Shown here piece by piece: positions 9,001-44,479 of a DNA stretch of 64,000 bases (positions within the stretch are counted from its first letter, which is position 1; every line of letters begins with the position of its first letter). This DNA is from a virus. Both the position numbers and the translations under genes were made by a program. The notes beneath the pieces were generated by a model. The model was not told the DNA's origin. It saw nothing but the letters and a program-made list of their open reading frames with translations, and searched no databases. The DNA is taken from positions 1-64,000 of the IMG/VR virus record IMGVR_UViG_3300032322_001295; one strand, 5' to 3'.

Positions 9001-12000
9001 GGAGGAAATAATGGTAGCTTAAATAGAAGAATCCAAAAATCTATAGCACAGCAGTTTAACTACAAAGATGGTTCTACTTTTTTGAAAAAACATGCAGGAT
9101 TTATTGTATCAAAATCTATGATGGATTCTAGTGTTGACATGGCTAACTTGTTTGAATACATGTTAAATCCAGCACTAAGACTAGTCATTAAAGGTGAAGA
9201 TTTAAATAAAATATCATTTTTAAAAAAATCTGATATTGATAACCTGGCTAATGATAGCTTATATCAAAGGTATTTGATTTATTTTGATCAATCTGCTACT
9301 GAAACTGCATTAAAGCAAACGCTTAGTAATATCAACAGTAAGTTTGGTAGTCTTAAAACTATGCTTGAAGGCAGCATTAAATACAAAAACAATGCTCCGG
9401 CCGTTGATTCTATTTTGGCAGATTGGAAAAACAGTCAGTTTAATGATACTATTGTAGGTCAATACGATTTTATTAGTAAAGTATTAGCGGATATTAACAA
9501 TCAAGGTTTATTATCACAAGAAGGAGATAAGGATCATGGTAGAGCTATTGAAATGCTTGTTGATTTTTATGCTGAATACAGAGCTAAAAATCCCGATACC
9601 TACAAAACAAAATATCCATATTTATCATCAATACAGTTTACTGGTAATAAAAAGGACCAAACCAAAGATTTTGAGATGCCGTTTGTTGCATTTAATAAAT
9701 CTGCAGGGGCAACACATTCTGATGCAAATGGTCAGTTTAACCAGGGCAGGCCTATGCCAATGTTTGTTAAAGATGGCGACGCTGCACCTACTAACTTTTA
9801 CGAACTTGTTGATTACTGGAAAAATCAAAAAGAAGATGCTCCTTATGATAAATGGACATATATGTTTGACAATACACAGGAAATAACACAATTAAATCCT
9901 GAAAGAGAAATAGATGACAACGAAGAATCGCCAATGGTTCAGGCAATGTCTATTATTCTTGCAAATCCAAATAGTTTAAATACAGGTCTTGCACAAGAAA
10001 TAGCAACAGACTTATCTTCTCTAATGCGCGTAGGATTAGAGAATGTAATGCGCTTTATAACAAATGAAGGTAAATGGAGTGAAGATGTAGACCAAAGAAT
10101 AAAAGATCTAAAAATACAAACAAGTGATATTATATCTGAAACTGGCGTTGTTTTATCTAATAAAGAAATAGCAACTATTGAAAACTTTGTAAAAAGTAAA
10201 ATCAAAAAGTCTATGTCTCAATCTGATGACACTACAATGCTATCAGAAATTATCAGTGACGACCAAATAAGTTTAAATGTTTCTCATGGTGCAGTAACTA
10301 GAGCCCAGCAATACGTAGCAGCATTCTTAAGAAAAGAAGCTGTTAAGAGAAAAGTAGATGCGATGCGTCTTGTACAAGCCGGTGGTAATTTTATTGATAT
10401 AGTGGAACATAAAGAAACTGGTGAAGTATTTATGTTAGCAGAAGCATATAAGCATGCTGCAAAAATGGGTGTAAGTTTTGATTCTCTTTTTGATGTAAAC
10501 TCTGTAAGAGGATTAAAGCATACTACAATTGATGCCAAACCTGATTTATCTGTAGAACAACTAGCACAGGTTAGAGCTATTGATACAATCATGAATCAGG
10601 CAATAGCGGAAAATCCAGCAAATGAAAAACAAATCAAAAAGGATTTTTCAAGGATTAAAATGAAATATCTGGCAGAGCAAAACCTACTAAATGTATCAAA
10701 AGGAGAAGCTATTGTTCCAGCAGTAATGTTTAAAAAGTTTAACATACCTAGCAATGTTGGACTCAATGAGATATTTAGATTGTATGGCAAAAAAGATGGT
10801 ATTGTCAATGAGACCAATCTAATTGAAGCTAGTTCAGACTACAATGCGACAAAAGAACTTATACAAAGCTTTGTAAATGATAACATTTCTTTTGAAATGA
10901 AATACAATAGCAATGGTAAGCCTAGAGTTGAAGTGCTGTACAATGAAAACCAATCAGGATTAAATACTTACTTTGAAATAATGTTTGTTGATGGATTAAA
11001 CAAATACCTCAAAGACAACTATAAAAAGTTTGGAAGTATTTATGCTAAGGTTGACAAGGAAATGGAGTTGAAGTATGGAGACTCATATAGAGCAATGAAA
11101 GAAGGTTCACTTGAAAAATCTGTAGAAGATATTAAGCAAGAACTAAGAACAAGACTTGCTGAAGAATCTACTGCTTTTGCTCAATCTGAAATAGCAAACT
11201 TAGTTGATAAATATACCGATGCCATAACATCTGTAGCAATAACGCTAAAAGATAATATTGGTATGCGTATTCCATCAGGACCAGGTTCTGGTTTTATTAA
11301 CAACATTGTAGGGTTTATAAATGATGCTAGTTCTGTTGGATATGTAAACACTATTAAAAACCTTATTGATGGTTCTGACCAAGACGTTGACCAGTTTACA
11401 ATCTACTATTTGTCAAGTACAATGCTTGACTCTGGTAAGATGTCTATTTTGGAATATAACAACTGGAAAGATAAGCAAAAGAAAGATGGCAACTATAATG
11501 TTTTGTCTGACGAGGAAGCTAAGGTTATTAACAACAAACTAATCAGACATCTTCAAAGATACTATTCAGATCCATTAAATGCTGAACTTACTATGGCAGC
11601 TATTGACCTTGACCCGGTAAAAAAAGCTGCTGATGGTACATATAGAGAATTATTTAAAGATGGCGACTTAGCGCATAACATTGGGCATTCATTTGTATAT
11701 AGAAATATTGCAATGGACGGACAGGCAGTAGGTCCATTTGCTAATGCTCAAAAACTACAAACATTGCTTTATTCTGGTTATAGTATGAACCAAAGAAGGG
11801 GTATAGATTCAAGTATTTACAACTTTAAAATTAACAAAGTAGAAAATGCTATTGGCCAGTTAGAAGATGAGTACAGCAAAGTTCCAGTGTACATGGAAAT
11901 GCTTATAAATGCAGCTACGGATAATCCAAAGTTGTTGATTTTAGGTGCAATGAATATCACAATGAACAATTCTGATATGGCATCTGCTATGATGTTTGCA

Positions 12001-15000
12001 CCAAAGGATATTCAAGATTACATGAGGTCAATGCCCGGTAATGAAAATATGAATGAAGTAGATGCAGTATTGAATTTCTTGAAACTTGATGCAAATAAAG
12101 ACATATTCAATTATGTAAAATCAAACTCAGGTATGTACAATGGTGGATTTTCTAGGTCTTACTACAATACAGCATACAATTATTACAAAAAACTACAAGC
12201 GCATGGTTCAGAATATGAAGAACAATACAAAAATAACTTAAATAAAAATAGTGACATTTTCGATAGTATGGTTTCGTTCCTTATCAATGATGTAGGATAT
12301 GATGAGGCATTTATAAATACAGCAATAGCAACCGCTCAAACAGAAAACAAAGGTGATGTTTTGCTATCTATGATTAGAAATATTAATATCAATAACATTA
12401 GTAAAGAGATTTCTAAAAAACACAATATTCTTAAAAATGTACTTGATAACTTTATAAAAGATAACCTTGAAGAAATAACTGACAACGAGTTTAAAGCTGA
12501 AATAGAAAAAGCGCTTAACTCTAAAGATGTTCAAGCATCATACGATATTGTTAACAGCATAGCTAGCATGTCGCCTATTGATAATTTGGCTAATATTAAC
12601 GAAGAAAGCAAAGCATTGTCTGAGAAGTACAAAAAGTTTTTTAAAGACCTAAAATCTTACAAGGACAATCTCAAGAAGAATAAAAATCTTTCTAGAAAAA
12701 CCGATCCTAGTTATATTAATGAAGTATATCTTGTTACTAAATATGCTATGCTTGGTGATATTATGAGCGATTTAGTTAAGGTTGCTAATATCAATCAGTT
12801 TAAACAATCAAAAGCTTATGATCAAAAAAAGTTTGAAAACGATTTTACGTTTGCCACTGGTTATACTATTGATGAACTTATTGGTATCTATGATAGATTT
12901 AACAGCTGGAAAAAAGACAACGGAGCAAGTAGCACAATAGGTGACTACTTTGACGCCAATCCTAATGAGAAAAAACCTATTGAAGCAGTAAGAGAAACAG
13001 CTTTTAAAACAAAAGCACACACTATGTCTCAGGTTGATTTTTCCTATATGAAAGATAGCATAGAGTCACCTGTAACTGGAGAAGTAATAAACTACTACGA
13101 AGACTACCACAAGATATTTGATTTTGCATCTATACTGCTTTCTAGGCCGGATGTAATGGAAAGCTTTAGAGCATCACAAATGTTTAAAGACATTAACTCT
13201 TCAATATTTAACATAGAGTCTACGGAAATACAATCTATGATAGACACTATAACAGATAACATTGCTTACGATATACTTCCAGAAGCTAAAAGCATAGTTT
13301 TAAAAGAAGAGATTAGTAAGTATTTTGTCCATTTGTATCTTTCCGAAATCAACAACAATGGTTTTGAATCAATAGTAAAAGAAGATATATTTAAAGCATT
13401 AGAAAAGTTTAATATTCTTACGCTTCCAATGACAGCTGGTTCATCAACGTCAAATGGAATGATGCATAATATTGGCAATCCTATTGGTGTAAGAAACTTT
13501 ATATCAAACTTTCCAGAGTTTTTTGATACAAGAATAAGACAATCAGAAATGCAAAGGTTGAAAGAAATGAGTAGTAAGTTTACTGCACAAGACCTTGAAT
13601 CTGCGTATGAGTTTATAGACAGAATAGAAAAGTATTCATACAACCGTATGGATTATCTTGAAGTGCAAAAGTCAAGAGTGCAAAACGCTAATGAAAATGA
13701 AATGCTTAGAGATGGCTTTAATAAGCTGTCAAATGAAACACAAACATTGCTAGCGTTGTACCATATTCTTAAGAACCAGTTTGACACAAGTAGGTCGTTT
13801 TTTGGTGAAGTATTACCTAAAAAGTTTCTTATCGATTATTCTAAATTTTTAAAAGAAGTATTGCCTACTAAAGAAATAAGTCAGGATTTGAATAATATTT
13901 CAGAAATGATTTTGTCTAACACAAGTCTTGATTTGCTTAAAAATGAAAAACGTATCTACAAAGATGGTAAAGAGTTTTCACAGGCCCCAGCTGCTTGGTA
14001 TGGCGTAGCCAAGCATTATAAGAAAACAATACAAACGCAAAAATCTAAAGTAGGTACGACAATAAGAACATTTGCTCTTGGTACTACCAATGGTATAAAT
14101 GGAGTTGCACTTACCCAGGGATCTGCTACAAAAACATCATTGTCAAATGTAGTACCATTTGATTCTGTAATCAATATGTACAATGATACAGATGCAATGG
14201 GTAATCCTATTACAATATCACTTAGTTATACTCCTACAATACTAAGAAACTTAAATATACCAATGTCATTCTCATTGGATTTAAGGCCGCACGCTTACAT
14301 CAAAAATATATTGCATGGGCATTTAGAAAATGACATACAAAACGCTATTAAAAGGCAGACACAAGAAGGCGTAGAACTTACTCCACAGGATGTATTGCAG
14401 ATAGTTAATGATGTTATGTCAAGAGATTTAAATAATGTTTATAACAAAAAAGGTATTCCTGCATTGCAAGATAAGACAACTTCAATGGATATGGAAAACA
14501 TGATAAGAAATAATGTTTTTAATATTACCGTTAACTCTATTTTGCAAAAACATGGCCCAAATGCTGATGCAATGTTGCAGTCATTAGATGGTAAAATGCT
14601 TAAAGATGAATACTATTATAGCGATATAGCCCCTTCGTACACATTGCACGCTGCGTTAAACATGCTTAAAGCTGAAGGCAAGCCGTTTACTATAGAAAAT
14701 CTTAGAGCAATAGAATCTATACCATCAATAGAATTATTTAGCGATACGTATGGCGTTCAATCAAACGAAGATGCTCCATTGGTAAACTTACTTGGTACTT
14801 TTGGTAATTACTTTACCAGAGAAAATGCTAGAGATTCTGGCTATGTGGTTGCCGTAAACATGAAAGGTCCAAACGGAGTAGGCACAAAAGAATTGTTCTA
14901 CGAAGCAGCAAAAGAAATATTTCAAGATACAAGTTTAAAAAACGATCAACTTAATACATTGCTTGCTAATATTCTTATAGCTGATTCTATAGGAATGTCT

Positions 15001-18000
15001 ACAGCTGATATGAAAAATAGAATAAACTCATTGTCAACTGTATCAACAAGCAATATAGATTTATTAAAAGAAGTTGCTTTTAAAACTTACTACAAACATG
15101 TTGATAGAAATATTGATGAAGATATAAGCAAAAGACATTCTACTAAATATCACAACATCAATAAGAGTATTGCAGAAGGAAAAATAACTGAACTTTTTGG
15201 CTCTATAAAATCAACTGTAGAAACATTGCAAAGGTATCAAGAAACACCGTATGAAGTTGGCGATATGATACATTTTCCTGATGGTATAGTTGGTATTGTT
15301 ACTAATGTTACATCAGAAAACAATGTAAACTATGTTATTAACCATAAGCTTACAGACAATAGAAACATATTCAATGCACAAAGAGCTGTTGTAAGTCTAG
15401 AAAACATCATGCAAAAAAACAACACAAGGTTTGCACTTGATGGTTTTGTTAGAACAATAGCCGGCATTATGCCAAATGTTGAGTACAGATATGTTAATGA
15501 CGAAGAAGCCCGTCAAATACAAAGGTCTGAACATGACAGCGTATCTTTCTACCAAGATGGTATTGTTTACATAAATGTAGATAAAGCTGATAGAGGTGTT
15601 GCTATTCACGAGTTTGCGCATCCATTGACATTGGCAATGCAGATAGAAAAGCCTGAACTATTTAACGCAATAGCGCAACAGGTTTCTCAATCTAGTGTAA
15701 TGGACTATGTTAGAAAAATGTACAAGGATGATCTTGATACAGAAGAAGCAATGATACTTGAAGCAATACCAACATACATTCAGTTTAGGTATTACGCAAG
15801 ATTGGCGCACGAAATGTCACCAGAAGAAAGAGCAAACTGGGAAATGTTTTTTGCTGAGGCAGGTTCTATATTTAAAGAAGCGTTAATCGGTGATGTAAAT
15901 GCAGAATCAAGTATTGACAATGTTGATTTTAAAACTGCTGACCTTAACTCTATATCTGATGCTATCTTAAATGATATGCTAAAAGGTAAGGAGTTTGTAG
16001 TCAGAAACAAAGAAGCGTTTAATATTGCTAGGTTCTTGCCATATACCATGCGGGCATCATCTGCTTCATCGGTCAAGAATATAAACTTAACAAATATAGA
16101 TACGTTATTTCAGCGAAAGTCGCACAATACAAAGGATGACAAAGCTAGAAGACAAATAATGGATTCTATTCAAGGTAATACATTCTCTGGATTATCAGGT
16201 ACTTATGACTTGACTATGAGAAACAAAGATTTCTATGACCCTAATGGTAATTACGATCAAAAACGCAAAGAAAAGTTTATTGTTAAAATAGTTGAAAACG
16301 AAATGGCGTTTTATGGTGGTATAGAAAATAACATTATTCAGTTCTTAAATGAACTTAAAGTACTTGAACCATTAGCTGCAGCAAAGCAATCATTATTTGC
16401 ATCTTGGAATAAGCGCTACGATTTACCTAATGCTACAGAAGTACAGAAAGAGCAACTTACTCAAAACATACAAAAAATGATGAACAAACTTGGCTACAAT
16501 CCAAATTTAGACCAAGCAATGATGCTAAGTGAAGCGGAAAAAACACTTGGATTAAAACTGCCCAATGGTGTAAAACTCGATAACACAATTGTCATTGTTC
16601 ATAACATTGGTAAGCCGGCACAAGAAATATCAATATTAAATGTTTCTCCAGAATACCTTAGTAATCATGGTATGGAAAAGAATAATATTGCTGCTGCGTT
16701 TATTGGAGAAAACTTAACTAATAAAGAAAAGAAACGTGCTAAAAAATTACAAAACGTAACTTTATCTAATGATAACGGACATATTGAAGCAGTTAAAACA
16801 GCTGTAATTGCTATGGCTATTAAAAAATCTAGTCCTGGTACAGTCATTAGAAAAGTAGGTGCCATGCATGTAAATGGTAGTAACATATCTGTAAGAAGTC
16901 GTGATGTGGATGACACTGTAAGACAGATTGAGTTGCTTGTTGACAATGTTCCGCAATTGCGTGATAATCTAGAAGTGGATATAAGAGATATTGTATCTGA
17001 TAAAACTTTGTACAACATGAACTTATACAAAGTACCTGTTGGAACTAGACTGCTCAACTATTTTAGAACGCTAATATCTACTTTAAAGCCTAATGATAAC
17101 TATAAAAAAAGTGTACAAAACACAATAGATCAAGGTATTAAAGTATTTGAAAATGGTGATAACTCATTTTACCAAGATATTCAAAAAGCTGTATTTGGTA
17201 GAATAATGCACTTAGCTGAAGAACTAGATAGCGATGTAGCAAAGGCTGCCAACGAAGAATACCAATTTTTATTACAAACGTATAGAGAACTTACTGGTTA
17301 CAACGAGATTAATACTCAAAGATTTAACGAGCTTTCATTTGATGAAAAGCTAATACAGACGGCAGACCGCTGGACAGGAGGAATAAGAACATGGTTATTT
17401 GACCAAGTTGATCTTGCTTCTAGAAAAGGTGTTAATGAAATGGTTCCGTTTAACAAAGAGTTGAACAAAAGAACAAAAACATTAAACACACTTTCTGGTA
17501 ATATTTTAAGTTATGGCCTTGACAAATCACATGATTTATTTAAACCATTATTTAAAAAGGCAACCGGTTATGATCAAAATGGTAAAGAAGTTCAAATATC
17601 AACTCACGAAATACATTGTGATATAAATGATGCTGAAACTGCAAGAGCATTAGCCAACAGAGAAATAACTACAGAACAATTAGAGTTTGGTAAATGGTTA
17701 GCCGATAGCATGTATGAAGAGTTTGTTCAATACGTAATGACCGTTGAACGCAAAAACATATCACAGCGCGCAAATATGACTGAGGTTGAGCTTAGAGCAG
17801 CAGCAGAAAATGAAGTAGCAAGACGATACAAGAGAGGTATGATGCCTGTATTTGTCCGTTCTACGGGTTCTGCTTTAAGTGAAGGCAAGTTGATGGAAGC
17901 ATTAAATATGTACATGAAAAACGCTGGTAGATTTATCGGTGGTGCATTGTATGAAGAGTTTACTCAAACAGAAGATGCAGATTACCAAAAAGAATCATTC

Positions 18001-19836
18001 AGAAAACTTATGTCGCCGTTCTGGAATCAGTTCCAAAATGCAGAACTATATGGTGGTTCATTTAGAATGAAACTTCTTGGATTAGACCTAAAAGTTAGAA
18101 ATCAGGATAGATCTCTTGAAGTAATTGCTCCGGAACTACAAAACTCATTGTCATATAACCTTCAGAATATAGGTAACTATACCATGATGGCATCTAAGCG
18201 TACAAAGTACATGCAAAGAGCAGTAGCATCTGCAAATATTGCAATGGATATGCTTAGAGGAGAAGAAGCAATGCGCGGTATAAATACTAAAGACGCAAGA
18301 GAGCATGTAGAAAACTATATTAACAGACAGATTTATGGTAATCTTCCAGAAATGCCTAAAGTAATGCTTGGCAATATATCTGTAAATATTGACTACATGT
18401 TAGATGCTAGTAACAGATTTATAAATATGGCACACCTTGCCGTTAAGCCTGGTGTTGCAATGAAAAACGTAGTAGCTACAACATCTAAACTTTTAATTAA
18501 TGCTTTGATAAATCAGATATCAGGTAAGAACTTTAATATTGCTAATGTTACTCGCGCTGTAGAGCAAATGTTTTCAAATGGTGAAAAAATAAGAGCATTA
18601 AATGAAAAGTATCAGTTTGTAAACATGAGTGAAAAAGATTTAATCAATCACTTTCAACATGTAGTAAGTAAAGCAAATGCTACTGAGCCAGATGCTCAAA
18701 TGATTCTTAACTGGTTTGGTGATTATTACAACCAGCTTATTGGTGGTATTGCTCAAATGATTAACGATGGTACTTATGATGCACACGACGAGTTTGGTAA
18801 TTACGATGAAACAAAAGACAAACGATTTGAAGGAGAAGATGGTGAATATATCAAAAACGCTATTATTGAACAGCAGTACAAAGAAGGATATCACATTCTT
18901 GATAATGGCAAAATGACACACGCATACACTCAAAGACAAGAGAACCATGTAAAATTGCAAGTGCAAAGATTTGTTGGTGAGTTAACCGATCCTAAATACA
19001 AAAACTTAGCATCAAGTTATTCATTTGTTCGTGCTGCGTCATCAATGAGAAGCTATATGTACAACGTAGCACAAGCATGGTGGAAAAACCCTAGCCAAAC
19101 AGTACATCTTGGTGGTTTTAAAGTAATTGAAGTTGATGGTAAAAAAGAAACTGTTTGGGCCCCAGAACTTACAGAGGGTATGATTAATACATTAATTTAT
19201 TGCGCTAAAGGTTTGAGAAATGCTGTAAAAACAGGTACATTTGATGATTATAAAAACATGTCTAGTTTCCAAAAGCGTAATCTTATAGCAATGGCTACGT
19301 TTACTGGTATCATGGCCGGTGTTTATCTTCTTGCAGATTCAATGTTATACGATGAAGATAGAAAGAAAGTTAAAAAATACCGTTATGAAAAAGACCCTAA
19401 AACAGGTAAGCGTAAAAGAGTAGATATTGATGAGCCTTGGATTTCTGAAAGATTATTATCTATGTTGTATGATACAAAATATGATATGCCAATAAAAGGT
19501 GACTTGTCTATGACTGAAATGTTTGCCAAAAATATACTTTTAAAAGGTGTTGAAGAACAACTGTCTTATGTATCTCCATATAGAATGTTTCAAGATATAG
19601 GTAGTATGCCATCAACTCATATTATGCAAGCTGATAATGTAGCTCAAACATTTGTTTCTACATTGATGTTGCCCTGGACATTGTATCAACAGAAAGATAT
19701 TGAAGGTCTTACTAATGAACTTGATGAGTATTTCTATGATTTAAGTAAAAACATGCCTCTTGGTGGTGGTTACCGTGACATACATGACACATACGATTAC
19801 ATGTTAAATTATATTGGTGAATCAACTAAAAAATAA
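1..19836 (+). CDS. Giant virion-associated polyprotein, 5'-truncated: SF1 (RecD-like) helicase + zincin + crAss-type two-barrel DNA-dependent RNA polymerase + second zincin + C-terminal hydrophobic segment
   Basis: Frame +1 is open from base 1 (NHLEEIVGKK...), so the true start is upstream and the GTG at 133 is not the start. Helicase motifs: GYGGVGKST (1747-1773), IFADE (~1966-1980), LLGDTLQAPP (2101-2130), SPQGRTLD, TAVSRA. Zincin motifs: HEISH (4780-4794), HEFAH (15607-15621). RNAP-like motifs: KR (8788), FDGQ (8944), GMRIP (11260-11274), GSDQDVD (11371-11391), NAATDNPK (11908-11931). Confidence 0.85.
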   Translation, partial: NHLEEIVGKKIDDISKKINDEREKIQNELDTDFNSVRDKFGFDDVTFDDLYNKTGNDEIDAAIDEVLGKKKDKVERFSALNGVDNEIKNAKTLLKNRGAVKYVPGGGIDTRTGEWNNGDYFTQQANQRKYKKVNKDVETEIDEKTFLSMQDAAKAQGKDSFEYNGEMFIADDSNQIKVDGKKAVDRSTLVDDSQLFDFLEIDDVNELFLKMPTVGGMNIREELNKISKEYDETKVLTAQMKERLKEINKNITDQEEMLSVYKWAKMLSENKILSPIQEEYMDMQTFNEINLPAYINKLAVDRSYFMNVAISTLSKDDRDNKLNELKDNVIKMQAHVYNELVAELNGDDIVVNGQTVKFPSEISLDSSETEVMQAYQWMHYFIQNLTPDQKNEFKETFDKFWSTKVESKDSIPSAKEQGMFLEGFDLMFDFEAFKDGYTKSKYHNKNNSYRELFYYHAINMMMNVDPMIAFGAISNVIDAVDASQKFELDKSKYPAGDHTAEQIMNVMIGITHLSENIKRNEANPDVAFIELLDHVKSTMKIGTSREGRFNKAKGLYDRVKDAATGKYNTNGKHIKDNVMSFFGYGGVGKSTFIIKTLSEIALSLGKKNFVFIAPNIEQKNILENTVKNIFPKGIHAEFYLVSDFVKKQDQYKDYVIFADEISLYSDEEKNSIAFNYNKIGGKKISTVDNVGFIDESNTVFLLGDTLQAPPSGEIYDNSPRIEQFTQHGFNITSVKRSSFIEIYKIQTEFRRNAKNNELGPPQLFGYSYSEDDNVKKGVKLNNDKDGFLAESKAAVESGIGYIIVHSEKEYNEIINDISPDKHDRVFLMTQLSKSPQGRTLDGEVYVYMPYSTTDTKSQYNNNKLYNMYMLTAVSRASQFVSVYTGDGLGNKNSVKVSEDKIESFDDSAEAKVERKQQLWNRISGVVKGLTAVKPVPLPVRNTNKPKAPVVQTDDLNQEEEKPEENAASNNTKGKGVKSNSKKPKKTTQVKTNNRKRKTTNKNKKQYEEQQEALEEEINEPITAYEQNVSNQGDMSEDELDNLDGNQDTDTDHSNIESSIDNGEFGLTLKTGENNVNLVTTFVNGNPFVVVVGGTYRKPDGEIIKVTRIISNDDGTYSVKTDKLKMVIPLEKFSELALSPSIDILDKYENALISFTQSGILTLFGKTIGYTPAMGPLTNKKALAAKYQEMANATAMLYKNLGQRFEVKIEIVKNMPTVDWNGSVNTAFPYVLQVSIDNGNGFEYFTTHYLQDPQRINKTVADNAQQENLEVYNNTLFGIVEKLYNANRTEFYTSATKNNISASSFIGFHKDIPVMSYSQVKDMVGMYGMELTETFQGIDKKGLAETYAIAHFGNKDNGQKIIFQSITASNMNDEQKNLMLNEVNRMRGILQNAVNQKLPNEAVNKQALQGTDSIFAFNNSFALLNNAVIAQKLYTEKDAENKTTIEERIKIRLEVLNDLAAFLSPVKDADYKYKYESLVSQFRLNTKMQGGKEVTGIEYMSTVKGLFLRMPVIDISAGILLDDTKGLASKITNQQELENYTSSFAEIQSELEDILGEGIQLGIIKSDLYHGFVDKLGKIHMNMHNGAFNPKTLSHEISHYVSEFLLTDEKQAELFDEVDKKYGVTQKQGNWRNDLDARRTVAEHLADDGERYKSDRRNLKGISKVMRSFFDWFNRFMSRIGIINDKINDFYYDLYVAKKYKSLSGMALNTVRDEMPYDSLYSRIIYDDSSFNTVANNFFYDNQIARQVANNVAEIAAKEVIMPSMNRRMFLDGAMSFTDMINRIENNSREKVMYDTDENGNTIYKEQVINGKSMFLPVIRELTVDYTKPFLRWNYNATDENGNSVTGLHLQYYDESIKGYKTAVPNSQGIFFTEKRQREEFRRLLQKSVDEFEIETVNGLVSVVDKTIEGKMKLKGIISNKDKVLYKNAMLLNSKVFKAMINRIFPSLDVDTIINRDGQVRYSDILESLIRVQDANIRKNEEELNPMDKQSDIMKLMLNTIPVYQFLPDGSVVEMRGKKLNYEVANKILTDIHSNLWIGNSQDGIEAFAKSMKRFIENKMMNNTNPTELNSDAKFISAYSIYKTYFDPQAKQSTDKYYYPSHTRIYNWNKQLSTKTRGTKDYQDALDRFYAEYLTAVNTEKESDETIRKQTPLTKDEFELNIAKRSKLSETILNSVITHFGSLTSNKFENVKKYGKGKRTTFVSMAKQSSSAHDTKLKLEQSIISNLQINGGLMPDRYVDLFINRKRPLKVKEGQEKSNSYFTMTDRGIRYRHKTNDPSDLGVIIMPLENGKFRNMKPDEINKLTQYAKNAQTNISGIIRKVFTDFFNMSKSSTAKNAAKVLSVPKVGSNTHGIENLSDVLAPLIASMYVYTVERTVDPNQITAKQPVYPLYLQALANTAKDSGQKENYGKITDATIDSILDKDAGSNILKDGEEYFFPTGFYKELQALAEIMTYNENNPTILSLDGRRKLYTIGNSHNFNYKFSNGKNDSLVEKFEEVVKGPHTNPNARGSKILNPILERKGIITSTPYMMGIDSTGKTAELKNMTVQDNLHAALANFTKNENQKALTYNISPVLIPVNNGGNRGRQHLFEVRLGHFNGNGNGFLTKQTIDNVDTFKLDVRNIASQLKRGFAIKEEAQVNSINRWMNFLMNPANNKITNNASSYFASLGLGLSPIDTTIPGWKAQRDATVPALVEYLKNYDAWIIDDDVVGFEGSGLRLGSDFLIIKANKNDKGGRLHLGHDASMMNKVLTRNEDGSLKFRSLAQQLFNYSNYNNTVTIDVDENNQIKFKLHEVLRTDDFNNEQIYVNYIDNLGLTQTYMFTDDNLQFIIDSLFEKHYKETNEIALADGYKMTSENVFDLYPYEDNIKVVDGINIYGTTPSVVWKGLIIGHAMVNYFSDHAIEGTEANHLSSVIYENETGPLTYGVNRNKRALSHTSTGFTPSFKTHNGMDEESRIMVIKDLKVNASISTLLGEINKEHIVFDGQSFNNPFSMEMYFNSIGGNNGSLNRRIQKSIAQQFNYKDGSTFLKKHAGFIVSKSMMDSSVDMANLFEYMLNPALRLVIKGEDLNKISFLKKSDIDNLANDSLYQRYLIYFDQSATETALKQTLSNINSKFGSLKTMLEGSIKYKNNAPAVDSILADWKNSQFNDTIVGQYDFISKVLADINNQGLLSQEGDKDHGRAIEMLVDFYAEYRAKNPDTYKTKYPYLSSIQFTGNKKDQTKDFEMPFVAFNKSAGATHSDANGQFNQGRPMPMFVKDGDAAPTNFYELVDYWKNQKEDAPYDKWTYMFDNTQEITQLNPEREIDDNEESPMVQAMSIILANPNSLNTGLAQEIATDLSSLMRVGLENVMRFITNEGKWSEDVDQRIKDLKIQTSDIISETGVVLSNKEIATIENFVKSKIKKSMSQSDDTTMLSEIISDDQISLNVSHGAVTRAQQYVAAFLRKEAVKRKVDAMRLVQAGGNFIDIVEHKETGEVFMLAEAYKHAAKMGVSFDSLFDVNSVRGLKHTTIDAKPDLSVEQLAQVRAIDTIMNQAIAENPANEKQIKKDFSRIKMKYLAEQNLLNVSKGEAIVPAVMFKKFNIPSNVGLNEIFRLYGKKDGIVNETNLIEASSDYNATKELIQSFVNDNISFEMKYNSNGKPRVEVLYNENQSGLNTYFEIMFVDGLNKYLKDNYKKFGSIYAKVDKEMELKYGDSYRAMKEGSLEKSVEDIKQELRTRLAEESTAFAQSEIANLVDKYTDAITSVAITLKDNIGMRIPSGPGSGFINNIVGFINDASSVGYVNTIKNLIDGSDQDVDQFTIYYLSSTMLDSGKMSILEYNNWKDKQKKDGNYNVLSDEEAKVINNKLIRHLQRYYSDPLNAELTMAAIDLDPVKKAADGTYRELFKDGDLAHNIGHSFVYRNIAMDGQAVGPFANAQKLQTLLYSGYSMNQRRGIDSSIYNFKINKVENAIGQLEDEYSKVPVYMEMLINAATDNPKLLILGAMNITMNNSDMASAMMFAPKDIQDYMRSMPGNENMNEVDAVLNFLKLDANKDIFNYVKSNSGMYNGGFSRSYYNTAYNYYKKLQAHGSEYEEQYKNNLNKNSDIFDSMVSFLINDVGYDEAFINTAIATAQTENKGDVLLSMIRNININNISKEISKKHNILKNVLDNFIKDNLEEITDNEFKAEIEKALNSKDVQASYDIVNSIASMSPIDNLANINEESKALSEKYKKFFKDLKSYKDNLKKNKNLSRKTDPSYINEVYLVTKYAMLGDIMSDLVKVANINQFKQSKAYDQKKFENDFTFATGYTIDELIGIYDRFNSWKKDNGASSTIGDYFDANPNEKKPIEAVRETAFKTKAHTMSQVDFSYMKDSIESPVTGEVINYYEDYHKIFDFASILLSRPDVMESFRASQMFKDINSSIFNIESTEIQSMIDTITDNIAYDILPEAKSIVLKEEISKYFVHLYLSEINNNGFESIVKEDIFKALEKFNILTLPMTAGSSTSNGMMHNIGNPIGVRNFISNFPEFFDTRIRQSEMQRLKEMSSKFTAQDLESAYEFIDRIEKYSYNRMDYLEVQKSRVQNANENEMLRDGFNKLSNETQTLLALYHILKNQFDTSRSFFGEVLPKKFLIDYSKFLKEVLPTKEISQDLNNISEMILSNTSLDLLKNEKRIYKDGKEFSQAPAAWYGVAKHYKKTIQTQKSKVGTTIRTFALGTTNGINGVALTQGSATKTSLSNVVPFDSVINMYNDTDAMGNPITISLSYTPTILRNLNIPMSFSLDLRPHAYIKNILHGHLENDIQNAIKRQTQEGVELTPQDVLQIVNDVMSRDLNNVYNKKGIPALQDKTTSMDMENMIRNNVFNITVNSILQKHGPNADAMLQSLDGKMLKDEYYYSDIAPSYTLHAALNMLKAEGKPFTIENLRAIESIPSIELFSDTYGVQSNEDAPLVNLLGTFGNYFTRENARDSGYVVAVNMKGPNGVGTKELFYEAAKEIFQDTSLKNDQLNTLLANILIADSIGMSTADMKNRINSLSTVSTSNIDLLKEVAFKTYYKHVDRNIDEDISKRHSTKYHNINKSIAEGKITELFGSIKSTVETLQRYQETPYEVGDMIHFPDGIVGIVTNVTSENNVNYVINHKLTDNRNIFNAQRAVVSLENIMQKNNTRFALDGFVRTIAGIMPNVEYRYVNDEEARQIQRSEHDSVSFYQDGIVYINVDKADRGVAIHEFAHPLTLAMQIEKPELFNAIAQQVSQSSVMDYVRKMYKDDLDTEEAMILEAIPTYIQFRYYARLAHEMSPEERANWEMFFAEAGSIFKEALIGDVNAESSIDNVDFKTADLNSISDAILNDMLKGKEFVVRNKEAFNIARFLPYTMRASSASSVKNINLTNIDTLFQRKSHNTKDDKARRQIMDSIQGNTFSGLSGTYDLTMRNKDFYDPNGNYDQKRKEKFIVKIVENEMAFYGGIENNIIQFLNELKVLEPLAAAKQSLFASWNKRYDLPNATEVQKEQLTQNIQKMMNKLGYNPNLDQAMMLSEAEKTLGLKLPNGVKLDNTIVIVHNIGKPAQEISILNVSPEYLSNHGMEKNNIAAAFIGENLTNKEKKRAKKLQNVTLSNDNGHIEAVKTAVIAMAIKKSSPGTVIRKVGAMHVNGSNISVRSRDVDDTVRQIELLVDNVPQLRDNLEVDIRDIVSDKTLYNMNLYKVPVGTRLLNYFRTLISTLKPNDNYKKSVQNTIDQGIKVFENGDNSFYQDIQKAVFGRIMHLAEELDSDVAKAANEEYQFLLQTYRELTGYNEINTQRFNELSFDEKLIQTADRWTGGIRTWLFDQVDLASRKGVNEMVPFNKELNKRTKTLNTLSGNILSYGLDKSHDLFKPLFKKATGYDQNGKEVQISTHEIHCDINDAETARALANREITTEQLEFGKWLADSMYEEFVQYVMTVERKNISQRANMTEVELRAAAENEVARRYKRGMMPVFVRSTGSALSEGKLMEALNMYMKNAGRFIGGALYEEFTQTEDADYQKESFRKLMSPFWNQFQNAELYGGSFRMKLLGLDLKVRNQDRSLEVIAPELQNSLSYNLQNIGNYTMMASKRTKYMQRAVASANIAMDMLRGEEAMRGINTKDAREHVENYINRQIYGNLPEMPKVMLGNISVNIDYMLDASNRFINMAHLAVKPGVAMKNVVATTSKLLINALINQISGKNFNIANVTRAVEQMFSNGEKIRALNEKYQFVNMSEKDLINHFQHVVSKANATEPDAQMILNWFGDYYNQLIGGIAQMINDGTYDAHDEFGNYDETKDKRFEGEDGEYIKNAIIEQQYKEGYHILDNGKMTHAYTQRQENHVKLQVQRFVGELTDPKYKNLASSYSFVRAASSMRSYMYNVAQAWWKNPSQTVHLGGFKVIEVDGKKETVWAPELTEGMINTLIYCAKGLRNAVKTGTFDDYKNMSSFQKRNLIAMATFTGIMAGVYLLADSMLYDEDRKKVKKYRYEKDPKTGKRKRVDIDEPWISERLLSMLYDTKYDMPIKGDLSMTEMFAKNILLKGVEEQLSYVSPYRMFQDIGSMPSTHIMQADNVAQTFVSTLMLPWTLYQQKDIEGLTNELDEYFYDLSKNMPLGGGYRDIHDTYDYMLNYIGESTKK

Positions 19837-25471: not shown

Positions 25472-25565
25472 TAGTCCTGACAGGATTCGAACCTGTAACG
25501 TACATCTCATATCTTTGATGCAAGCACTTGATAATAGTTGCGTCTACCAATTCCGCCACAGGACT
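25472..25565 (-). tRNA. tRNA-like RNA (Leu-type D arm, canonical T arm, non-canonical anticodon arm); possible pseudo-tRNA
   Basis: Minus strand AGTCCTG-TG-GCGGAATTGGTAGACGC-A-[42 nt]-ACAGG-TTCGAAT-CCTGT-CAGGACT-A: perfect 7-bp acceptor and 5-bp T stem. No 5-bp anticodon stem and no encoded CCA. Confidence 0.7.
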
Positions 25566-41557: not shown

Positions 41558-42093
41558 ATAGTTTGTTTTAAAAATAAAATAATATTATTTACAAAAGTAT
41601 CGCCAGTAACTGATGTCGTTATATCTCCATCCTGGATTTCATAACGACATTCTGATAAGTTTAAATCAGACCTGTATACGTCATAGCTCCTTACTATATC
41701 TAGTGAAAGTAATAACCTGTAAGATGAGTTAAACCAGATGGTAAGTACAACTGACATACGCTCATGTATTATCATTCTACTTCCACTGTCAAAATCTGTA
41801 CAGTAATTATATTCATCAACAATATCGTAATGAATATTGCCACAAACAAAATGCTTTCTATCACCTTCAAAGTATCCAAGGCTATACTGATCATCACAGG
41901 ATATATCTGAACACTTGATTGCATGTAATACTAAAGCTTCTGCTATGCAACTAATGTATAGTTCAATAGCACTATCTCTTGTATCAGCATCTGCATCATC
42001 TATGATAGATTTCAGTAACAACAAAGATAGCTCCACATCATCAGCCAAGAATAATGTAGAGCATCTCTTTATCATATCATTTAGTTCTTGCAT
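41551..42093 (-). CDS. Hypothetical protein
   Basis: Start re-called at MQELND because 42114-42202 looks like structured non-coding RNA. Confidence 0.55.
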   Translation of the reverse strand: MQELNDMIKRCSTLFLADDVELSLLLLKSIIDDADADTRDSAIELYISCIAEALVLHAIKCSDISCDDQYSLGYFEGDRKHFVCGNIHYDIVDEYNYCTDFDSGSRMIIHERMSVVLTIWFNSSYRLLLSLDIVRSYDVYRSDLNLSECRYEIQDGDITTSVTGDTFVNNIILFLKQTIC

Positions 42094-42164
42094 GCCGGAC
42101 CAATGCATGCGAAGAACCCAAGAACAAAACCTACTAATGTAGGCAAGTGGGCCCAGTAATAATA

Positions 42165-42202
42165 AAGGAATACTGACAACCCAATGGTCATCAGTATCCC
42201 CC
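42165..42202 (-). terminator. 17-bp hairpin (terminator or RNase III-type processing site)
   Basis: GGGGGATACTGATGACC-ATTG-GGTTGTCAGTATTCCTT with G.U pairs on the minus strand, directly after the 42208 stop and followed by TATTATT. Confidence 0.55.
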
Positions 42203-42207
42203 AATTG

Positions 42208-42507
42208 TTAGAGATAAACTGTTTCACGTTGTACATTTTTAACAAACGCTTGAAAAACTCTTATTGACTCATCAATACCAGGAAGAGTGTTAAACATATA
42301 AATATCTTCTACGTTGTTGTTTTTATCTACGTAGATTTTTACTCCGACTTGACCAAATCCGTAGATTCGGTAACTTATTATGTAATGCCCCTCATCTTCT
42401 TTATACTTCCCATCTTCCCATAGATTAAGTTGGTACTGTGTACCATCGTTAGGAAATAACTCTTCCATTTTATTTAATACCTCAGTTCTTAATTCTTGAT
42501 AGTTCAT
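42208..42507 (-). CDS. Hypothetical early protein
   Basis: 99 aa, preceded by leader repeat R1. Confidence 0.65.
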   Translation of the reverse strand: MNYQELRTEVLNKMEELFPNDGTQYQLNLWEDGKYKEDEGHYIISYRIYGFGQVGVKIYVDKNNNVEDIYMFNTLPGIDESIRVFQAFVKNVQRETVYL

Positions 42508-42513
42508 AACTAT

Positions 42514-42563
42514 TATACTCTTGTCATCCTCACATAGGCTCGAGTTCTACCTATACGCTTGTT
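42514..42563 (-). repeat. Leader repeat R1 (50 nt, covarying stem-loop)
   Basis: 39/50 identical to 42793-42842; ends 6 nt before the ATG at 42507. Confidence 0.85.
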
Positions 42564-42574
42564 AGTTATTTGTT

Positions 42575-42787
42575 TTATATTGTTATTTCTGCTGGGTTCA
42601 TGCAAAGCATGACATCCCACTCTTGACCGTAGTCAGAAAAAACTAAACTGTATGGTTCGCGTTCGTAATACTGAACACCATTCCAAGAAAAAAGCATACA
42701 GCCTTCTTCGTCCCTGATTTGCAATCCATTATCATCAACACATGGAAGCAAACATTTAAGAGGGACATATTGTCCTGTCTGTGTCAT
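42575..42787 (-). CDS. Hypothetical early protein
   Basis: 70 aa, preceded by leader repeat R2. Confidence 0.55.
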   Translation of the reverse strand: MTQTGQYVPLKCLLPCVDDNGLQIRDEEGCMLFSWNGVQYYEREPYSLVFSDYGQEWDVMLCMNPAEITI

Positions 42788-42792
42788 ACTTA

Positions 42793-42842
42793 TATACTCT
42801 TGTCATCCTTACACGTGCTCGAGCTCTACACGCATACTTGTT
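42793..42842 (-). repeat. Leader repeat R2 (50 nt, covarying stem-loop)
   Basis: Partner of R1; ends 5 nt before the ATG at 42787. Confidence 0.85.
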
Positions 42843-42915
42843 TTTTTAAATGATTTGTTGTTTCTTACTGGATAGTACATACTACCCTCGCACCTGTAAA
42901 CTCAGGTTGTTATTC

Positions 42916-43125
42916 TTAATCTTCTAGTTTACGCACGTTCACATACGTTACTACAGTATCACCACTATTATCTGTATCTAGAAGTTGATTCCAGATATAA
43001 TCTGCAACTTTTTCCGCGTTCTCTTCAAGTACATATACACTGTGAAGATTGTCATTTAAATAAATACCATAAGAAAATGGTGTTAAATAATCAAAAGATA
43101 ACTTTTCCATAATACTAGTGACCAT
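42916..43125 (-). CDS. Hypothetical early protein
   Basis: 69 aa; start may be the later MEKLSF. Confidence 0.55.
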   Translation of the reverse strand: MVTSIMEKLSFDYLTPFSYGIYLNDNLHSVYVLEENAEKVADYIWNQLLDTDNSGDTVVTYVNVRKLED

Positions 43126-43314
43126 TCTTTATAGGGCATTTGAGTCATTTCCCTTGTTGTGAAAAATATATAAAGTGTAGATATAATCACCTATAATAAA
43201 ACCCACGCAATCACTTACAATATTAGTATGTATAACACTAATAGAGTTGTGCGATATGATGTAGAGTAGAGTAATGCGCAGCAGATGGTAGCCACTCACA
43301 CCTTTTCTCTATCA

Positions 43315-43330
43315 TGTTCCACGTGGAACA
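43315..43330. promoter_or_regulatory. parS: parS centromere-like site
   Basis: Perfect 16-bp palindrome TGTTCCACGTGGAACA matching the bacterial chromosomal parS consensus TGTTNCACGTGNAACA; intergenic. Confidence 0.8.
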
Positions 43331-43416
43331 ATAGCACTAACAGTCTGACAGTCAACGCTATATGTAAATCATTATCTAATATTTTGTTATCTTACTAACA
43401 GTAGTATGAACCTTTT

Positions 43417-43446
43417 AAAAAAACCCCACGCCCGAAGGCGCAGGGA
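43417..43446 (-). terminator. Rho-independent terminator with cUUCGg tetraloop
   Basis: CCCTGCGCC-TTCG-GGCGTGGGG-TTTTTTT just after the 43453 stop. Confidence 0.85.
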
Positions 43447-43452
43447 TTTTTC

Positions 43453-43815
43453 TTACTTCTTCTTCTTAGTAGTAGTTTTGACCACTACTTCTTTCTTTTC
43501 TTCTTCTTCTTCAGGAAGTCTAGTCTCGACGACAGCTTTGTTGTTGATGGTGACGAATAACTCCTCACCAGTTTCAAATACAAACTCTTGTTCGTCTAGG
43601 AAATCTTCTAGGATTCCATCTTTACGTAATTGGTCTATCAACTGATAGGCACCAATGGTACCCTTATCAGTCAAGATACACTGCGAAGCTTTCTGCCCCC
43701 AAGTGCCTTTTCCCAATAACTTTACAAGATGTTCCCCTTCTTTCATGAATAGAGGAGAGTTCTTTTCTCCTTTTTCAATGATTTCTGTAACCTTTCCTAA
43801 TGATACCTTGCTCAT
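43453..43815 (-). CDS. Hypothetical protein, stand-alone unit, charged C-terminal tail
   Basis: 120 aa ending EEEEEKKEVVVKTTTKKKK; has its own terminator. Confidence 0.65.
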   Translation of the reverse strand: MSKVSLGKVTEIIEKGEKNSPLFMKEGEHLVKLLGKGTWGQKASQCILTDKGTIGAYQLIDQLRKDGILEDFLDEQEFVFETGEELFVTINNKAVVETRLPEEEEEKKEVVVKTTTKKKK

Positions 43816-43910
43816 AATACATGAAATTAAAAAGTTAGATAATGATTTAACGCGGGGGTACGATACATTAAGTGCCCTCCCGTCTTTTTTCTTTTTCCTC
43901 TACCAAAAAC

Positions 43911-43942
43911 TTGCATAAAACGTGCTATCTGTGTATATTGTG
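43911..43942 (+). promoter_or_regulatory. Possible rightward promoter (TTG-N20-TATATTGT)
   Basis: Imperfect Bacteroidota -33/-7 arrangement about 35 nt before the ATG at 43976. Confidence 0.3.
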
Positions 43943-43975
43943 CCATTATTCATTCACTATTAAATCTATATTATT

Positions 43976-44479
43976 ATGCAGACTAGGATAAATTATTATG
44001 TAAGGACTACTACTGGTGGTCATATAAAGTTGGGTACTTTGGTTACGACTAAAGATTGCAAGGTACTGGGGGTAGTTGAGGAGGTTGGAAGATTACTGGG
44101 GATAGATGGGTGGAACTGTTACGAGGTTAATGGCAAGATGGTTGTTGATGGTCCTGGTATTCCTACTGATATTGTATATGATTTTGTTGTTAATCATACT
44201 GGTCAGTCTATGAGTTTGAGGTATGATAATAGTATTGATATTAGTGGGTTTGTTGTACCGAAGATAGGGGGGTATAAATATGTTGCACCGGTTGTTGGTG
44301 ATGAGGTTGTTGAGGTAGAGGCTGGTCCTGCTCCGAGTGAGAGTGTTGGGATGTTGAAAGAGCCTGATTATAGTAAGATGAAGAAGGCTGAGTTGTTGGA
44401 GATATTGGGTGATGACGGCGATGGTAAGTTGAGTAAGGCAGAGTTGATAGAAATTATTGTTAACAAGTTAAAGAAGTAG
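43976..44479 (+). CDS. Hypothetical protein with C-terminal HeH/Rho-N-like motif
   Basis: DYSKMKKAELLEIL...KLSKAELIEII. Confidence 0.6.
   Translation: MQTRINYYVRTTTGGHIKLGTLVTTKDCKVLGVVEEVGRLLGIDGWNCYEVNGKMVVDGPGIPTDIVYDFVVNHTGQSMSLRYDNSIDISGFVVPKIGGYKYVAPVVGDEVVEVEAGPAPSESVGMLKEPDYSKMKKAELLEILGDDGDGKLSKAELIEIIVNKLKK

Follow-up and report, generated by a model that had tools for sequence, protein, structure and literature searches.

A duplicated hairpin module joined to the start codons of accessory genes in crAss-like phages: a candidate mRNA leader

The locus and its genomic setting

The window analysed here is a 64,000-nt stretch (positions 1 to 64,000) of IMG/VR record IMGVR_UViG_3300032322_001295, an 88-kb virus with direct terminal repeats (87,877 bp) whose crAss-type terminase, portal and major head protein mark it as a crAss-like phage. 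Its leftward genes between 23.7 and 43.8 kb form a tightly packed operon. The first of them, encoding a 120-aa protein (43453-43815, minus strand), ends in a strong terminator at 43424-43445; next come a conserved non-coding region and a hypervariable insertion spot, which reaches from that region to the gene of a small hydrophobic protein (Table 1). The content of the spot differs between relatives: three ORFs lie in the window, three different ones in the related phage G001, a single one in L018 and L020, and none in L019. The second and third ORFs of the variable stretch, ORF70 and ORF99, are preceded by R2 and R1, respectively, two copies of a 50-nt module that is the sole substantial non-coding repeat of the window.

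Neither ORF70 nor ORF99 belongs to a Pfam or PHROG family or gave an Atlas lead above 0.85. Homologues from metagenomes share 61-83% identity with ORF70 and 78-83% with ORF99, and in both families the first methionine is common to the window ORF and its homologues. When alignments of the two families were used as queries against IMG/VR, no related loci were recovered, and alignments of two conserved neighbours returned only the four relatives already known. One ORF70 homologue, P0022, carries a 30-aa in-frame N-terminal extension, which is incompatible with an upstream module because both module types contain in-frame stops; it gives a weak indication that the ORF70 family is not always tied to the module.

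Start codons throughout the genome lack a Shine-Dalgarno (SD) sequence and are preceded by A at -3, -6 and -11 to -14, with a peak at about -12, while G is low in the start regions (6-15%). An A-rich, SD-less start context is the Bacteroidota pattern (PMC6847099), and the signature seen here is clearly of that type, which makes it useful for host assignment. Metagenomic matches to parts of the region came from lake and freshwater samples and one soil sample, mostly covering small shares.

Several further features of the locus lie outside the module. A giant ORF of 6,567 aa occupies 133-19836 on the plus strand. Relatives conserve a 39-codon ORF (MAQYTQI..., 43827-43946, minus strand) upstream of the 120-aa gene, and in several database homologues (P0004, P0005, P0012 and P0015) it is joined in frame to the 120-aa protein; it could be a real N-terminal extension, a small gene or a conserved control region. 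The conserved non-coding region, which lies near the GC-skew minimum and the point of transcription divergence, is kept in G001 and L018-L020 and more loosely in L023. It contains a perfect 16-bp parS-like palindrome, TGTTCCACGTGGAACA, at 43315-43330, kept in the same five relatives, and in the window a sigma-70-like TTGACT-16-TATTGT overlaps its left edge. At the other end of the insertion spot, the small hydrophobic protein gene always follows the cassettes directly, often overlapping the preceding stop (ATGA), and forms the fixed right-hand anchor of the hot spot.

Table 1. Module copies and neighbouring features; coordinates are positions in the window
Feature	Coordinates	Strand	Remarks
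Small hydrophobic protein gene	42081-42245	minus	about 48 aa, ending CIGPACKN; conserved in all relatives
Hypervariable insertion spot	42227..43162	minus	from the conserved non-coding region to the small hydrophobic protein gene
ORF99	42208..42507	minus	99 aa; cassette gene behind R1
R1 linker and ATG of ORF99	42505..42513	minus	linker of 6 nt; similarity to other copies ends at the ATG
R1 core module	42514..42563	minus	50 nt; stem type 1
R1 17-nt tail	42514-42530	minus
R1 3' arm	42531-42538	minus
R1 loop	42539-42549	minus	holds CTCGAG
R1 5' arm	42550-42557	minus
R1 AACAAG flank	42558-42563	minus
ORF70	42575..42787	minus	70 aa; cassette gene behind R2
R2 linker and ATG of ORF70	42785..42792	minus	linker of 5 nt
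R2 core module	42793..42842	minus	stem type 2; 50/50 identical to the G001 and L023 copies
R2 tail	42793-42809	minus
R2 3' arm	42810-42817	minus
R2 loop	42818-42828	minus
R2 5' arm	42829-42836	minus
R2 flank	42837-42842	minus
49-nt island	42870..42918	minus	two hairpins; 27 nt upstream of R2; outside the module proper
Conserved non-coding region	43126-43412	minus	about 280 nt; after the terminator of the first leftward gene
Copy in G001			IMG/VR, 88.5 kb; identical to R2 over 50 nt; downstream ORF of 79 aa
Copy in L023			JGI metagenome contig, a more distant relative; identical to R2 over 50 nt; downstream ORF of 105 aa
Copy X5			G001-like lake metagenome contig; identical copy
Copy X3			G001-like lake metagenome contig; 2 differences; insert behind the module 323 nt vs 240 nt
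Copy X2			lake contig; R1-type copy after the end of an ORF70 homologue; 7 differences in the stretch

Architecture and pairing of the module

Both 50-nt copies were verified on the minus strand. Each runs from AACAAG through an 8-nt arm, an 11-nt spacer containing CTCGAG and a complementary 8-nt arm to a 17-nt tail, AGGATGACAAGAGTATA; together with the linker to the start codon, the unit spans about 58 nt. Even with three mismatches allowed, a search of the window and of the complete 87,877-bp genome finds the tail AGGATGACAAGAGTATA at these two sites only. A preliminary description of the locus had reported a covarying stem followed by a tail that ends a few nucleotides ahead of an ATG, and its structural claims hold. 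R1 and R2 differ at 11 positions, 10 of which lie among the 16 stem positions, and all eight pairs stay intact: four through double changes, two through one-sided changes to or from G.U, and two unchanged. The gap between tail and ATG was confirmed as well. The pairing is specific to the coding strand, where every non-Watson-Crick pair of the stem is G.U; on the opposite strand these become A.C mismatches, leaving only 4-5 bp. RNAalifold adds a ninth pair, an invariant U.G, giving a 9-bp stem with a 9-nt loop.

Clustering of the differences and pairing of the stem are both far beyond chance. In simulations, at least 10 of the 11 differences fell inside the stem with P = 7e-6, and all pairs were kept with P = 0.005 when eight transitions and two transversions were placed randomly in the stem. 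Shuffling of the 3' arm gave full pairing with P of about 0.004 per copy. The arms are mostly alternating pyrimidine-purine, which inflates chance pairing (a register slid by +2 still pairs 81%). Taken jointly, the conserved-variable-conserved-variable-conserved pattern and the keeping of all pairs have P of about 4e-8; all of the covariation comes from one comparison, since only two distinct stem types exist.

Predicted folding energies of the 66-nt stretches are ordinary (MFE z-scores of -0.15 and -0.59). The hairpin has a pair probability of 0.7-1.0 in three of four contexts and of 0.24 in R2, where a rival fold involving the start codon reduces it. With RNA parameters it reaches -7 to -8.5 kcal/mol, and with DNA parameters -0.7 to -3.0 kcal/mol on the coding strand and -1.5 to -2.6 kcal/mol on the template strand. 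From these sequence properties, we regard the element as real, statistically solid and narrowly distributed, with a structure that is best explained at the RNA level.

The element matches no known family. Against the Rfam 15 covariance models at gathering thresholds, the whole window gave a single match, a tRNA at 25472-25565. A scan at E<=10 of 42150-44000 and the G001 locus left the module free of matches except CRISPR-DR33, whose score of 15.5 bits (E 9.3) falls short of the threshold of 39. The same scan found no riboswitch model, which bears on the earlier suggestion of a riboswitch-like element. The module could in principle be a small ligand-sensing riboswitch in which an H-type pseudoknot covers the start region: the loop RCUC can pair with GAGU of the tail, the single A/G loop difference is compatible with this helix, and the size is close to that of the smallest pseudoknot riboswitches. 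However, this second helix comprises only 4 bp and offers no covariation to judge it by, loop and tail being invariant apart from that one A/G; the genes behind the module are unrelated ORFans with no common metabolic role; and no copy occurs among representatives of 185,579 bacterial and archaeal species. We therefore consider a riboswitch to be the most improbable of the explanations weighed here.

Nor does the stem have the features of a terminator. The sequence following it, AGGATGAC, is free of a T-run, and a terminator scan does not call the stem; lacking a U-run, the module stem is therefore not an intrinsic terminator or attenuator. Genuine terminators of this phage carry T-runs (U-runs in the transcript). 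Between the terminator at 43424-43445 and the modules, the minus strand has no terminator-like site, and R1 starts 11 nt past the ORF70 stop. As the genes are co-directional and tightly packed with no intervening terminator, the modules are most simply read as intercistronic RNA of the operon.

Distribution of the module and exchange of the genes behind it

Further copies were sought with exact and degenerate patterns in IMG/VR, the JGI metagenomes and the bacterial and archaeal representatives, and by blastn in GenBank phages; pattern matches were filtered with a covariance model built from the module copies. After filtering, the only real further copies were those of G001 and L023, both readable. 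The remaining pattern matches were tail-only or loop-only chance matches, several of them within coding regions, and were discarded. One representative genome each of 185,579 bacterial and archaeal species yielded no copy, and neither did the GenBank phages searched by blastn. In total, the module was found in only five or six places. Applied to the four related records G000-G003 (45-89 kb), the covariance model detects 2, 1, 0 and 0 copies, respectively; G002 and G003 keep the flanking genes.

Across these places, the module is joined to its downstream gene in a constant way. The distance from tail to ATG is 5-6 nt in all five copies for which the downstream sequence was read (R1, R2, G001, L023 and X2), and in the copies read the start is always ATG and the module always on the coding strand. 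In a four-way alignment, the copies resemble one another only from AACAAG to the ATG, and BLASTP shows no relationship among the four downstream ORFs that were translated. In X2, similarity to the window breaks at 42511, and the 30 adjacent letters provide a new ATG 5 nt past the tail. The module marks cassette junctions, a feature that the preliminary description had not noticed, and probably the places where cassettes are swapped.

Identity of the copies goes beyond that of their surroundings. All positions of the type-2 50-mer agree among the window, G001 and L023 (50/50), while for the conserved gene and non-coding region next to it identity is 89-94% between window and G001 and 62-74% between window and L023. 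L023 combines the type-2 stem with a type-1-like 3' end, TATAAT, and this mixture suggests exchange within the module. The very narrow distribution (three to five related phages, one or two copies each) would fit a functionless remnant, a duplicated stretch hitch-hiking with recently transferred DNA. Against this stand the patterned conservation with all pairs kept, the 50/50 identity despite flanks of 62-74% identity, and the way in which five different ORFs are joined to it precisely and with the same spacing, and we judge a remnant very unlikely.

A sequence serving recombination or mobility with no expression role of its own, whether as a homology patch or as a recombinase site that shuffles ORF cassettes, would account for breakpoints between related phages falling exactly at the module edges, for the mixed L023 copy, and for the G001-like lake contig with a different insert (323 nt, not 240 nt) behind the same module. 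It also has a precedent in the promoter early stem-loops (PeSLs) of T4-type phages (PMC4122927). A pure homology patch, however, would have no need of a compensated hairpin or of constant 5-6 nt spacing from the ATG; the hairpin is too weak as DNA for attC- or HUH-type single-strand sites; and no recombinase or nuclease gene lies near the module, all neighbouring ORFs being without family matches. As a complete explanation, recombination appears quite unlikely.

The preliminary description had also considered that the first early genes carry a virion RNA polymerase signal here, and this part is not supported. Both copies lie past the strong terminator and the conserved non-coding region, inside the variable insertion spot, and since R2 and R1 precede its second and third ORFs, neither copy belongs to the operon's first genes. 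Absence of the module from the closer relatives G002 and G003, which keep the locus, means that it cannot be a core virion RNA polymerase signal. A hairpin promoter resembling the N4 early promoters would suit a phage that encodes the giant ORF at 133-19836; the virion polymerase of phi14:2 transcribes single-stranded DNA, and the early promoters of that phage have no known motif (10.1101/2020.03.07.982082). In N4 promoters, too, some bases are conserved while stem bases vary yet stay paired, and the copies are few and co-oriented, but their hairpin is formed by the template strand, is short with a GC-rich centre at -11, is essential, and sits at the heads of early operons (PMC4496689). The module, in contrast, pairs best on the coding strand, forms a weak DNA hairpin (two A.C mismatches on the template strand) and is dispensable in relatives; it is present in one or two copies away from the operon head, and its loop of 9-11 nt is not a GC-rich heptamer and is centred 36-37 nt from the ATG. 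Such a promoter is highly improbable.

Candidate roles in expression of the accessory cassettes

A stronger case can be made for a DNA-level promoter and/or operator carried by each cassette, in the manner of morons or PeSLs. In the promoter version, a -10-like hexamer found 3-5 nt before the ATG, a perfect TATAAT in R1 and L023 and TATATA in R2 and G001, would start transcription at or next to the ATG and yield a leaderless or near-leaderless mRNA. In the operator version, the inverted repeat with its central CTCGAG palindrome would be bound by a dimeric regulator or form a boundary structure. The type-2 copy, stem included, is invariant in three diverged phages, as expected of sequence-specific DNA recognition, and with only two stem types, one of them unvarying, either DNA-site recognition or recent lateral spread is possible. 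Like the PeSL promoter-terminator units (PMC4122927), the module also accompanies accessory ORFs within a variable region, and middle promoters of phi14:2 are sigma-70-like (10.1101/2020.03.07.982082).

Several observations argue against this possibility. The module is not called by a promoter scan, and promoter-like matches in the region are at the level of shuffled sequence. Promoters of Bacteroidota follow the consensus TAnnTTTG. The module has no such element, no sigma-70-type -35 box at 16-18 bp (the -35 position falls within the variable 3' arm) and no extended -10 TG. The arms of R1 and R2 differ within one genome while the spacer is conserved, the reverse of what operators show, and dyad symmetry is broken solely by G.T pairs, all on one strand. 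Transcripts of F. johnsoniae are reported to be mostly leadered (PMC6847099). On balance, we regard a promoter or operator as unlikely, though it deserves to be taken seriously.

Repeated elements ahead of small variable phage genes have been described before. PeSLs are units of a stem-loop and an early promoter at indel or replacement junctions in hyperplastic regions of T4-type phages (PMC2839356, PMC4122927). The module resembles them as a short conserved stem-loop with a putative expression signal, repeated before small variable genes, with a stem that varies in sequence and keeps its structure, and it too lies in a hyperplastic region at gene-replacement junctions between close relatives. 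PeSLs, however, combine a terminator, made of a G+C-rich stem and a T-run, with a sigma-70-like -35/N17/-10 promoter and are present in many copies per genome, whereas the module has neither T-run nor -35 box, occurs only once or twice per genome, shows no sequence similarity to them, and has a conserved part that reaches to 5-6 nt before the ATG. In Cluster K mycobacteriophages, the SAS is an asymmetric conserved sequence 3-7 bp before the ATG of non-structural genes, found in one orientation only and preceded in about half of the cases by an inverted repeat (ESAS); a role in translation initiation has been suspected (PMC3203893). The module shares the position, 5-6 nt from the ATG, and the single orientation. 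Yet SAS has a 13-bp consensus, GGGATAGGAGCCC, with an SD core and 11-19 copies per genome, while the module is unlike it in sequence, has one or two copies and belongs to a crAss-like phage with SD-less starts; moreover, ESAS arms are conserved around a variable spacer, whereas the module arms vary with compensation around a conserved spacer. Differing from PeSLs and from SAS/ESAS in sequence and architecture, the module is therefore a member of neither. By analogy, it would be a variant of the repeated start-associated regulatory modules of phage accessory genes.

In phage translational operators, such as those of T4 gene 43, the regA targets and the coat-protein hairpins of RNA phages, a protein-bound hairpin sets translation. 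These share with the module a small hairpin, a sequence-specific loop and a single-stranded tract leading to the start region, but each serves one gene or regulon with a known repressor, while the genes behind the module vary.

The preliminary description had proposed a regulatory RNA, offering among other readings a translation enhancer for hosts that do not use SD sequences. Part of this reading is supported: the strand-specific hairpin, the conserved loop and flanks, the tie to the start codon, the lack of an Rfam match and the SD-less host. A simple enhancer fits poorly. The tail is unusually G-rich compared with start regions of the genome and carries an upstream AUG; Bacteroidota avoid extra AUGs near starts (PMC6847099). 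That the tail departs in this way from the starts elsewhere in the genome suggests that it is recognised specifically and is not a generic open landing site.

We tentatively favour the view that the module acts as a portable mRNA leader with a defined structure, probably recognised by a factor, which would set translation of the accessory cassettes and also provide a homology patch for their exchange. In a small lineage of freshwater crAss-like phages of the Bacteroidota type, it would be carried inside the polycistronic leftward transcript and supply accessory ORFan cassettes with their translation-initiation region. Read from its 5' end, the leader would consist of AACAAG, a hairpin of 9 bp whose 9-nt loop is conserved, a conserved 17-nt single-stranded tail, a linker of 5-6 nt and the AUG, with the hairpin fixing a structural boundary about 23 nt upstream of the AUG. 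A trans-acting factor, possibly a phage or host protein or the ribosome itself, would read the loop and the G-containing tail sequence-specifically and so set or time translation of whichever ORF follows. ORFs would be exchanged at the module, leaving unrelated genes fused to it exactly at the ATG; the near-identity of the module across copies and phages suggests the homology-patch role. We infer all three components of the expression role, namely action as RNA, control of translation and a factor acting in trans, from sequence comparison. Besides the ordinary folding z-scores, the alternating arms and the small number of stem types, three observations weigh against the leader: predicted accessibility of the start regions is unremarkable (ranks 47 and 59 of 72 genes), so that neither an exceptionally open nor an exceptionally closed start region could be retained as an idea; relatives without the module keep all conserved neighbouring genes; and the -10-like hexamers stand just before the ATG.

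A broader and more doubtful proposal is that the module represents a previously undescribed class of structured initiation leaders for the SD-blind ribosomes of Bacteroidota, in which a hairpin and a G-containing tail would be read by a specific factor of phage or host. Such a leader could act as a plug-and-play adaptor for accessory, possibly anti-defence, cassettes and at the same time as the site of their exchange.

Other ideas on how the module might act were tried and dropped. The AUG in the tail opens a mini-ORF that is inconsistent between copies, encoding MTRV-stop in R1 and L023 and forming an out-of-frame overlap of 15-16 codons in R2 and G001. Pairing of the loop or tail with the conserved upstream non-coding region gave z > -1.6 and is not conserved in L023. 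Loop-loop kissing through the CTCGAG palindrome was rejected, with G001 and L023 each holding a single copy, and avoidance of CTCGAG as a restriction site (3 occurrences vs 8.2 expected, 2 of the 3 in the module) was not significant. A GGA site of the CsrA type was set aside in view of the Bacteroidota-type host, in which CsrA is not expected. An AACAAAT box upstream of the module is present in three copies and missing from L023.

Almost nothing is known of how crAss-like phages start and regulate expression in hosts that ignore SD sequences, and early transcripts of phi14:2 share no common upstream motif (10.1101/2020.03.07.982082). The module offers a concrete handle: reporters in Flavobacterium or Bacteroides would allow its effect on translation or transcription to be assayed, it may provide a portable expression part for Bacteroidota, and it points to a hot spot at which accessory genes are swapped between freshwater crAss-like phages.

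The spot contains a second short conserved piece upstream of R2 (Table 1). In G001, about 240 nt (L015:10755-10995) separate it from the module; this stretch has no gene-strand ORF of at least 40 aa and no Rfam match at E<=10, and contains internal complementary segments. The 49-nt island itself forms two hairpins, ACCTG...CAGGT and GGGTAGTA..TACTATCC, is 94% conserved between the window and G001 (L015:10706-10754), and is found in lake contigs between unrelated flanks. It can also be read as TTTACA-17-TACTAT. The island is possibly another mobile element with a regulatory role, serving as a promoter or as a structure at transcript ends.
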